Assembly (NCBI GenBank): GCA_036273375.1 | Contig: DASUHS010000002.1 | Strand: one strand, 5' to 3' | DNA: 64,000 nt | Source of the DNA: Mycobacterium sp. | GTDB lineage: Bacteria; Actinomycetota; Actinomycetes; Mycobacteriales; Mycobacteriaceae | In this document: piece by piece, positions 32,832 to 33,998 of the stretch | How positions within the stretch are numbered: position 1 is the stretch's first letter | How the letters are laid out: every line of letters begins with the position of its first letter | Notes under the pieces: model-generated | Database searches by the model: none | What the model saw: only the letters and a program-made list of their open reading frames with translations | Told to the model about the DNA's origin: nothing | Program-made: the position numbers and the translations under genes

Positions 32832-33998
32832 TTGGCCGTTACGCCGATATCCCTGACACCGGGCGTCCTCGCCGAGGCCCTGGTGGACCTGGGCGCGATT
32901 GAGCACAACGTGCGGCTGCTGTGCGAGCAGGCCGGCGACGCGCAGGTGATGGCCGTGGTCAAGGCCGACGGCTACGGCCACGGAGCCCCCCAGACGGCGC
33001 GCGCCGCCGTTGCCGCGGGGGCCACCGAGTTGGGTGTCGCCACTGTCGCCGAGGGTCTGGCGCTGCGCGCGGCCGGGATCACCGCACCGGTGTAGGCCTG
33101 GCTGCACCCGCCCGGTATCGACTTCGGGCCCGCGCTGCTGGCCGACATTCAGATCTCCGTGTCGTCGGAGCGCCAGCTCGACGAGCTACTGGACGCGGCG
33201 CGCCGCACCGGCCGGACCGCGACGGTGACCGTCAAGGTCGACACCGGGCTGAACCGCAATGGGGTACCTCCGGGGCAATACCCCTCGATACTGACCGCGC
33301 TGCGCCGGGCCGTCGCCGAGGAGGCTATCGCGCTGCGGGGGCTGATGTCGCACATGGTCTATGCCGACCAGCCCGACAATCCCATGAATAACCTTCAGGC
33401 CCAACGGTTCAGCGACATGCTGGCCCAGGCGCGCGATCAGGGTGTGCGGTTCGACATGGCGCACCTGTCGAATTCGTCGGCCACGATGTCGCGTCCCGAC
33501 CTGGCCTTCGACATGGTGCGCCCCGGCATCGCGATATACGGGTTGAGCCCGGTGCCCGAGCGCGGCGACATGGGTCTGGTGCCGGCGATGACGGTGAAAT
33601 GCACTGTGGCCCTGGTGAAGTCGATCAACGCGGGGGAGAGCGTGTCCTACGGCCACACCTGGACCGCGCAGCGCGACACCAACCTCGCGCTGATTCCGGT
33701 CGGTTATGCCGACGGCGTCTTCCGGTCGCTGGGCGGACGGCTGGAGGTGTTGATCAACGGCAGGCGGCGACCGGGCGTCGGGCGGATCTGCATGGACCAG
33801 TTCGTGGTCGACCTCGGCCCGGGACGCACCGACGTGGCCGAAGGCGACGAGGCGATCCTGTTCGGGCCGGGCGTCAGTGGTGAACCCACCGCGCAGGACT
33901 GGGCCGATCTGCTCGGCACTATCCACTACGAAGTGGTGACCAGCCCCCGCGGGCGGATCACCAGGACCTACCGCGAGGCGCGAACCGTTGAGCCGTGA
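32832..33998 (+). pseudogene. alr: Alanine racemase interrupted by one in-frame TAG at 33093..33095
   Basis: Track ORFs 32832..33095 ([30 protein letters not shown]...[11 protein letters not shown]...GITAPV*) and 33159..33998 lie in the same frame. Translating through the stop gives ...[35 protein letters not shown]..., which is colinear with full-length mycobacterial Alr. Confidence 0.9.

Follow-up and report, generated by a model that had tools for sequence, protein, structure and literature searches.

An in-frame amber codon in the alanine racemase gene of a metagenome-assembled Mycobacterium contig: recent null allele or consensus error

Growth of Mycobacterium tuberculosis is blocked when the alanine racemase gene, alr, is repressed by CRISPRi (PMC11309781), and a need for D-alanine in alr mutants, of M. 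smegmatis as well as M. tuberculosis, is stated in the titles of Milligan 2007 and Awasthy 2012 as cited in PMC5700341. A shunt from D-glutamate to D-alanine has been seen in a mycobacterial alr mutant, and growth of an alr deletion was restored when the D-amino-acid transaminase (DAAT) MSMEG_5795/Rv0812 was overexpressed (PMC8105722). The outcome predicted for the locus described here is the same as for these engineered nulls, namely no alanine racemase (Alr) and dependence on D-alanine or on DAAT. The engineered strains, however, are cultured laboratory constructs with measured phenotypes, whereas here a single base in an uncultured metagenome-assembled genome (MAG) is known from sequence alone. 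The natural point of comparison is the M. tuberculosis gene Rv3423c. The local motif around the stop is identical in the two, the PLP lysine and the catalytic tyrosine are equivalently placed, and in both genomes alr is followed by tsaE, tsaB, rimI, tsaD, groES and groEL1. Unlike M. tuberculosis, which has Leu at codon 88, our locus has TAG there and so encodes no full-length protein; it also has an alpha/beta hydrolase gene between alr and tsaE, as does the closest relative that we found (L081).

The window, by which we mean the whole 64,000-nucleotide stretch of DNA that was analysed, carries alr on the plus strand at 32832..33998. The gene is one frame of 388 codons plus a terminal TGA, and reads as full-length Alr apart from one internal stop, the TAG at codon 88 (Table 1). 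The letters at 33081..33107 are ACC GCA CCG GTG TAG GCC TGG CTG CAC. The translation stays in a single frame throughout, with no frameshift, and the open reading frames 32832..33095 and 33159..33998 share that frame. The amber codon is a deterministic feature of the sequence, and no statistical inference is involved in calling it. Where an uninterrupted frame of about 385 amino acids is expected of Alr, the frame here is broken, and the locus would be alr by descent, yet as written no functional member of the family. The one-frame translation bears out the sequence-only reading of the gene as split by a single in-frame amber without a second lesion.

In the annotation of some relatives (407-409 aa, among them P0001 and P0002), Alr has 20 additional residues at its N-terminus, reading for example ...SLAVTPISL at the junction. 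In the window, the sequence matching this extension (32714..32831, upstream of alr) lies in a frame other than that of alr, so the extension of the relatives is probably an untranslated leader, with the true alr start at MAVTPISL. A start at this position agrees with the 384-aa M. tuberculosis enzyme in 1XFC.

Table 1. Positions of alr, its neighbours and the ESX-4 genes in the window
Feature	Coordinates	Strand	Remarks
eccB (ESX-4)	8820-10292	+	
mycP (ESX-4)	10257-12014	-	
eccD (ESX-4)	11567-13000	-	
eccC (ESX-4)	12943-16770	+	
gadB (glutamate decarboxylase)	31273..32637	+	Upstream of alr; HEX5252292.1
alr 5' segment, codons 1-87	32832..33092	+	TTG start; MAVTPISL...GITAPV
In-frame amber TAG, codon 88	33093..33095	+	Ancestral Leu; TTG in closest relative
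alr 3' segment, codons 89-388 and TGA	33096..33998	+	Rest of barrel, whole C-terminal domain, Tyr273
Alpha/beta hydrolase	34051..35100	+	Next downstream of alr; intact; HEX5252293.1
tsaE	35093..35641	+	Intact; predicted GTG start at 35093; 8-nt overlap with hydrolase stop
tsaB	35638..36261	+	Intact; ATGA overlap with tsaE; HEX5252295.1
rimI	36258..36725	+	Intact; 4-nt overlap with tsaB; HEX5252296.1
tsaD	36799..37824	+	Intact; ends in TAG; HEX5252297.1

When codon 88 is masked, the Alr sequence gives full-length matches to thousands of mycobacterial alanine racemases, and its identity to intact mycobacterial Alr is 84-95% over the full length. The best protein match (P0001, from Logan SRR3392742) reaches 95% identity, and 89% is seen for the enzymes of M. 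nebraskense and M. lepraemurium; unlike the window, P0001/L081 and these two species have an uninterrupted Alr, with a TTG or CTG Leu codon at the site. Against the M. tuberculosis Alr structures 6SCZ, 1XFC and 8AHW, a single alignment covers residues 3-384 (E about 1e-209). Lys44 (32961..32963) aligns with K42 of 1XFC and 6SCZ, and Tyr273, in the motif SYGHTW (33648..33650), with Y271 of the same two structures, both at an offset of -2. We take K42 and Y271 of 1XFC to be the two catalytic bases, K42 being the one that binds PLP. Both K44 and Y273 are invariant columns when the protein is aligned with its 15 closest homologues, and all invariant columns among these homologues are kept in the window except codon 88, where Leu is found in 15/15. 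The Pfam domain Ala_racemase_N (PF01168) is divided between the two open reading frames, the first covering profile positions 1-71 and the second 95-220, while Ala_racemase_C (PF00842) is complete in the second (profile positions 1-127 of 127). By homology and by its usual neighbourhood, the locus is an ordinary single-copy-type mycobacterial alr, the orthologue of M. tuberculosis Rv3423c.

These alignments also agree with what had been said of the gene from its letters. The M. tuberculosis residues that had been given for the surroundings of the stop are the same letters in 6SCZ and 1XFC. The PLP lysine had been assigned to the first piece, and the 1XFC/6SCZ alignment locates K44 upstream of the stop; most of the barrel and the C-terminal domain had been assigned to the second, where the Pfam coverage and Tyr273 also place them. 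The translation proved homologous to mycobacterial Alr over its full length, with Leu at codon 88 in the relatives.

A contig scan with the repaired protein gave at least 80 relatives, the best at 87% among the matches listed, which included neither the genome of the window itself nor the 89-95% identical relatives. All 81 related loci examined have Leu at this codon (CTG in 71, TTG in 5, CTC in 3 and CTT in 2), and the stop is found in 0/81. The closest relative, L081, is 94% identical to the window over alr, shares its gene order at 92-94% nucleotide identity, and has TTG at codon 88, so that one base change suffices to give TAG. As had been proposed from the letters, Leu is ancestral, and a single T>A transversion at 33094 (TTG to TAG) would account for the stop. 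Among the sequences compared, which comprise these 81 loci, the lesion appears to be unique to this contig.

The alr gene is one open frame in 80/81 of the related loci examined. The sole other broken copy belongs, like ours, to a Mycobacterium-related MAG (L042, 10001-11151; CAVRER010000037.1, MFD10071.bin.1.140), where alr runs over three frames with frameshifts near codons 35 and 82. This break looks like an indel-type assembly error; in contrast to its two frameshifts, the window has a clean substitution without any indel. Alr fragments of 115-250 aa are also numerous on long public contigs (83 kb to 1.2 Mb), mostly from ENA MAGs (for example, P0139, P0145, P0148 and P0143), and split alr genes seem to be recurrent in metagenome assemblies.

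As written, translation ends after 87 residues. The resulting peptide keeps the PLP lysine, but Tyr273, the entire C-terminal domain and some two thirds of the TIM barrel are missing from it. Because Lys44 lies upstream of the stop, and Tyr273 with most of the enzyme downstream of it, the allele is predicted to encode no active Alr and would be a null. The earlier expectation that neither piece would be active alone remains a prediction, in keeping with the position of catalytic Lys44 and Tyr273 on different pieces. Cells that carried the allele would draw D-alanine either from a D-amino-acid transaminase shunt of the Rv0812/MSMEG_5795 type or from their surroundings, and polarity might lower the expression of the genes that follow alr in the same direction.

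The age of the lesion can be judged from the selective constraint on the rest of the gene. Relative to L081, dN/dS is 0.18 for alr and 0.09-0.19 for eight flanking genes, and the pattern is alike against two more distant relatives. With differences in alr polarised by four outgroups, the window branch has 5 non-synonymous changes, which are conservative, to 10 synonymous ones, and the sister branch has 7 to 21; the expectation that we used for neutral decay is roughly three non-synonymous changes per synonymous change. Purifying selection has acted on the gene along virtually the entire window branch, and any neutral period is below about a fifth of the branch, a rough Poisson bound. Given that both dN/dS and the branch counts resemble those of functional genes, the stop would be either very recent or an error. 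The relaxed constraint or secondary lesions that mark an old pseudogene are absent from alr, and a disabling lesion relative to intact orthologues, as in a nonsense null allele, is present. The view that the lesion is recent is upheld to this extent, with dN/dS equal to that of the neighbours and no second lesion. The absence of secondary decay is equally what an artefact would look like.

The remainder of the window was examined for similar defects. In the 54 genes checked, an internal stop occurs only in alr, and there are 0 frameshifts; the 53 other genes were judged intact by full-length Pfam matches and the lack of any internal stop or frameshift. The search combined Pfam coverage with a GC3-based scan for stops that lie in frame between stretches of 50 clean coding codons, and the scan returned two stops in true coding frames, namely the rpsM/rpsK gene boundary and the alr TAG. 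A blastx comparison of the 21-46 kb region with the stop-to-stop open reading frames of relatives was too noisy, because high-GC DNA gives rise to shadow frames and to frames that stay open upstream. That the other 53 genes are clean rules out a generally error-prone, indel-rich assembly. Reductive genome decay is likewise ruled out, as 53/53 of the other checked genes are intact.

The sequence-only reading had assumed an isolate genome; the window instead comes from a third-party metagenome-assembled genome ('MAG TPA: ... [Mycobacterium sp.]'), where exact look-ups place GadB, the hydrolase, TsaB, RimI and TsaD on one contig of 64,041 bp. In the deposited record, the accession of gadB is followed directly by that of the hydrolase (Table 1). 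The alr gene between them is skipped and therefore has no protein product in that record, as would be expected for a pseudogene annotation. Neither Alr fragment, with several alternative starts allowed, was found as a deposited protein in an exact look-up among 15 billion proteins, so that none of the gene callers behind that collection had yielded them. Exact patterns across the stop gave 0 matches in JGI metagenome contigs, both for the strain-specific pattern with NNN at the codon and for a clade-level pattern with TNG. A 141-aa query centred on the stop recovered no same-species partial protein above 87% identity, and megablast of the alr locus against a phage collection gave no match. One Logan contig (L082, from SRR25158402) is 98.0% identical in DNA to the window over 35306..36765, from tsaE to rimI, with 20 mismatches and 2 gaps, and its TsaB and RimI proteins are exactly those of the window. 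This indicates that a second strain of the same uncultured species was present in another sample; the L082 contig does not extend as far as alr.

We put the probability at about one half that the TAG is a real allele in the sampled environmental Mycobacterium population, with a T>A change having turned Leu88 into an amber codon. If so, we infer that it is a recent null, probably deleterious or conditionally tolerated, and no long-standing gene loss. The evidence for a real allele is that the 53 other genes on the contig are clean, which gives a slight lean towards it over an artefact. Against it, none of the searched assemblies and metagenome contigs gave a second sequence across the site. Moreover, since alr is required for growth in the mycobacteria tested, it is a priori unlikely that the dominant genotype would be a null.

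The chief alternative, to which we assign somewhat less than an even chance, is that the true alr is intact, with TTG at codon 88, and that the A at 33094 arose by error in the consensus, the assembly or the sequencing, or is a rare minority variant that the assembler followed at a bubble; no appreciable fraction of the cells would then be without Alr. The MAG origin of the contig, the lack of relaxed constraint in alr and the intact gene in 80/81 relatives examined, with the lone broken copy, L042, resembling an assembly-type error, are all consistent with this explanation, as is the growth requirement for alr in the mycobacteria tested (PMC11309781, and the two titles cited in PMC5700341). 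Uncurated MAGs carry local errors that produce incorrect genes, and the incorrect coding sequences are then propagated; populations that assemble well usually yield a well-supported consensus (Chen et al. 2020, PMC7111523). By a rough estimate that was not computed, the chance of a nonsense error in alr and that of a real nonsense allele being dominant there are comparable, at roughly 1e-5 to 1e-4 per genome. Counting against an artefact are the absence of a frameshift or stop from the 53 other genes of the 64-kb contig and the fact that a substitution in a short-read consensus normally requires several supporting reads. A T>A change is also not known to be characteristic of sequencing-platform errors, and we count this against an artefact as well.

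Were the allele real, it would bear on whether Alr is the sole mycobacterial source of D-alanine and on which enzyme D-cycloserine must hit to be lethal; one nonsense base in one uncurated MAG contig is too little to settle either question. It is unlikely, in our estimate, that the contig represents a free-living mycobacterium of the slow-growing clade that naturally lacks Alr as a persisting lineage and obtains D-alanine by an Rv0812-type shunt or by cross-feeding in soil. In such a lineage, the disputed alr-null phenotype of the laboratory would have its counterpart in nature, with an altered dependence on the D-cycloserine target. Because the locus is on a MAG contig and alr is skipped among the deposited proteins, its significance is much lower than it would be for an isolate. 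As one nonsense substitution in a gene that is well known, the finding is of an ordinary sort, neither a new system nor a new variant. The practical lesson is that read support should be checked before the loss of an essential gene is scored from MAG sequence.

A real allele might still give some active enzyme, either through near-cognate readthrough of UAG or through reinitiation followed by non-covalent assembly of the fragments. General plausibility speaks for this, in that bacteria show some basal readthrough and the turnover of Alr is high; we nevertheless regard it as very improbable. TAG terminates 15/54 window genes, including glmS, groEL1, tsaD and rpsK, at the expected C-termini: in glmS it follows the canonical ...KSVTVE, and in groEL1 a histidine-rich tail. 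TAG is not, then, the unused or rare terminator that recoding calls for, nor is the in-frame stop conserved as programmed recoding would require, being present in 0/81 related loci. A search for tRNA genes and Rfam families found none within the 64-kb window. The first in-frame restart codon after the stop is the GTG at 33159 (codon 110), 22 codons downstream, and no Shine-Dalgarno-like sequence was found upstream of it. With restart no earlier than codon 110, the pieces could not rebuild a complete barrel.

Two specific versions were rejected. Recoding or suppression of TAG is ruled out by its use as a normal terminator and by the absence of the stop from all 81 related loci examined, and a functional split enzyme made by reinitiation is ruled out in that the restart product would be without 22 conserved residues and without the PLP lysine. 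Least credible of all is a long-standing pseudogene, with Alr lost earlier through reductive evolution of the M. leprae or M. lepraemurium type, for which nothing speaks except the stop codon itself, and against which stand dN/dS and branch counts indistinguishable from those of functional genes, the absence of a second lesion in alr and of any other pseudogene among the 53 neighbouring genes, and the intact Alr of M. lepraemurium (P0008 and P0009).

The genes around alr are arranged in the order gadB, alr, hydrolase, tsaE, tsaB, rimI, tsaD, a C39-like gene, groES and groEL1. The sequence-only reading had placed alr at the head of a chain of overlapping genes. Overlaps do join the hydrolase to tsaE (with the GTG start predicted at 35093), tsaE to tsaB, and tsaB to rimI, and L081 has the same 8-nt hydrolase/tsaE overlap; alr, by contrast, is separated from the hydrolase by 52 nt (taking the deposited start at 34051), and rimI from tsaD by 73 nt, so the chain does not extend to either end. 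Towards the left end, the window carries rpsM, rpsK, rpsD, rpoA, rplQ and truA, then three cutinase-like paralogues, and continues with ESX-4 (eccB, mycP, eccD, eccC), rplM, rpsI and glmM. Before alr come glmS, a DUF4436 gene, a rhomboid-like gene, nnr and gadB, and after groEL1 come whiB, sigD, rsdA, guaB2, guaB3 and choD. The gene arrangement in the window is the conserved mycobacterial one.

Several other features of the window were observed along the way. The three tandem secreted paralogues at 6520..8803, on the minus strand, share the motifs C-P-(D/G)-(I/V/A)-E-V-(V/I)-F-A-R-G and G-Y-S-Q/L-G-A, and visual inspection, together with synteny to the cut genes of M. tuberculosis, suggests that they are cutinase-like. 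In the third, the C-terminal tail is rich in Pro, Gly and Tyr, with PGYGPQ repeats. A complete-looking ESX-4-type type VII secretion locus lies within 8820..18369. On the 3' side of eccC it has a 413-aa open reading frame without a Pfam match and then a small one at the usual position of esx genes, likewise without a Pfam match at E<=0.001. The S9 protein encoded by rpsI (19383..19961) has an acidic N-terminal extension of ~60 aa with EA-rich repeats. Within 21488..23208, a small EspC-like protein (PF10824, a weak match) is followed by a 477-aa Ala/Pro/Gly-rich open reading frame with DDKAA repeats and no Pfam match. A shadow frame of equal length lies opposite it (21853..23226), and the coding strand was assigned from synteny alone. 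At the left end of the window, a minus-strand gene (2..1771) that runs off the end encodes a response-regulator receiver fused to a pyridine-nucleotide-disulphide oxidoreductase of thioredoxin-reductase-like type. Further along, at 41522-43042 and 44054-45577 on the plus strand, are two HAMP-adenylate/guanylate cyclase genes that are paralogues of each other; between them, an SDR gene (43077-43910) is encoded on the other strand.
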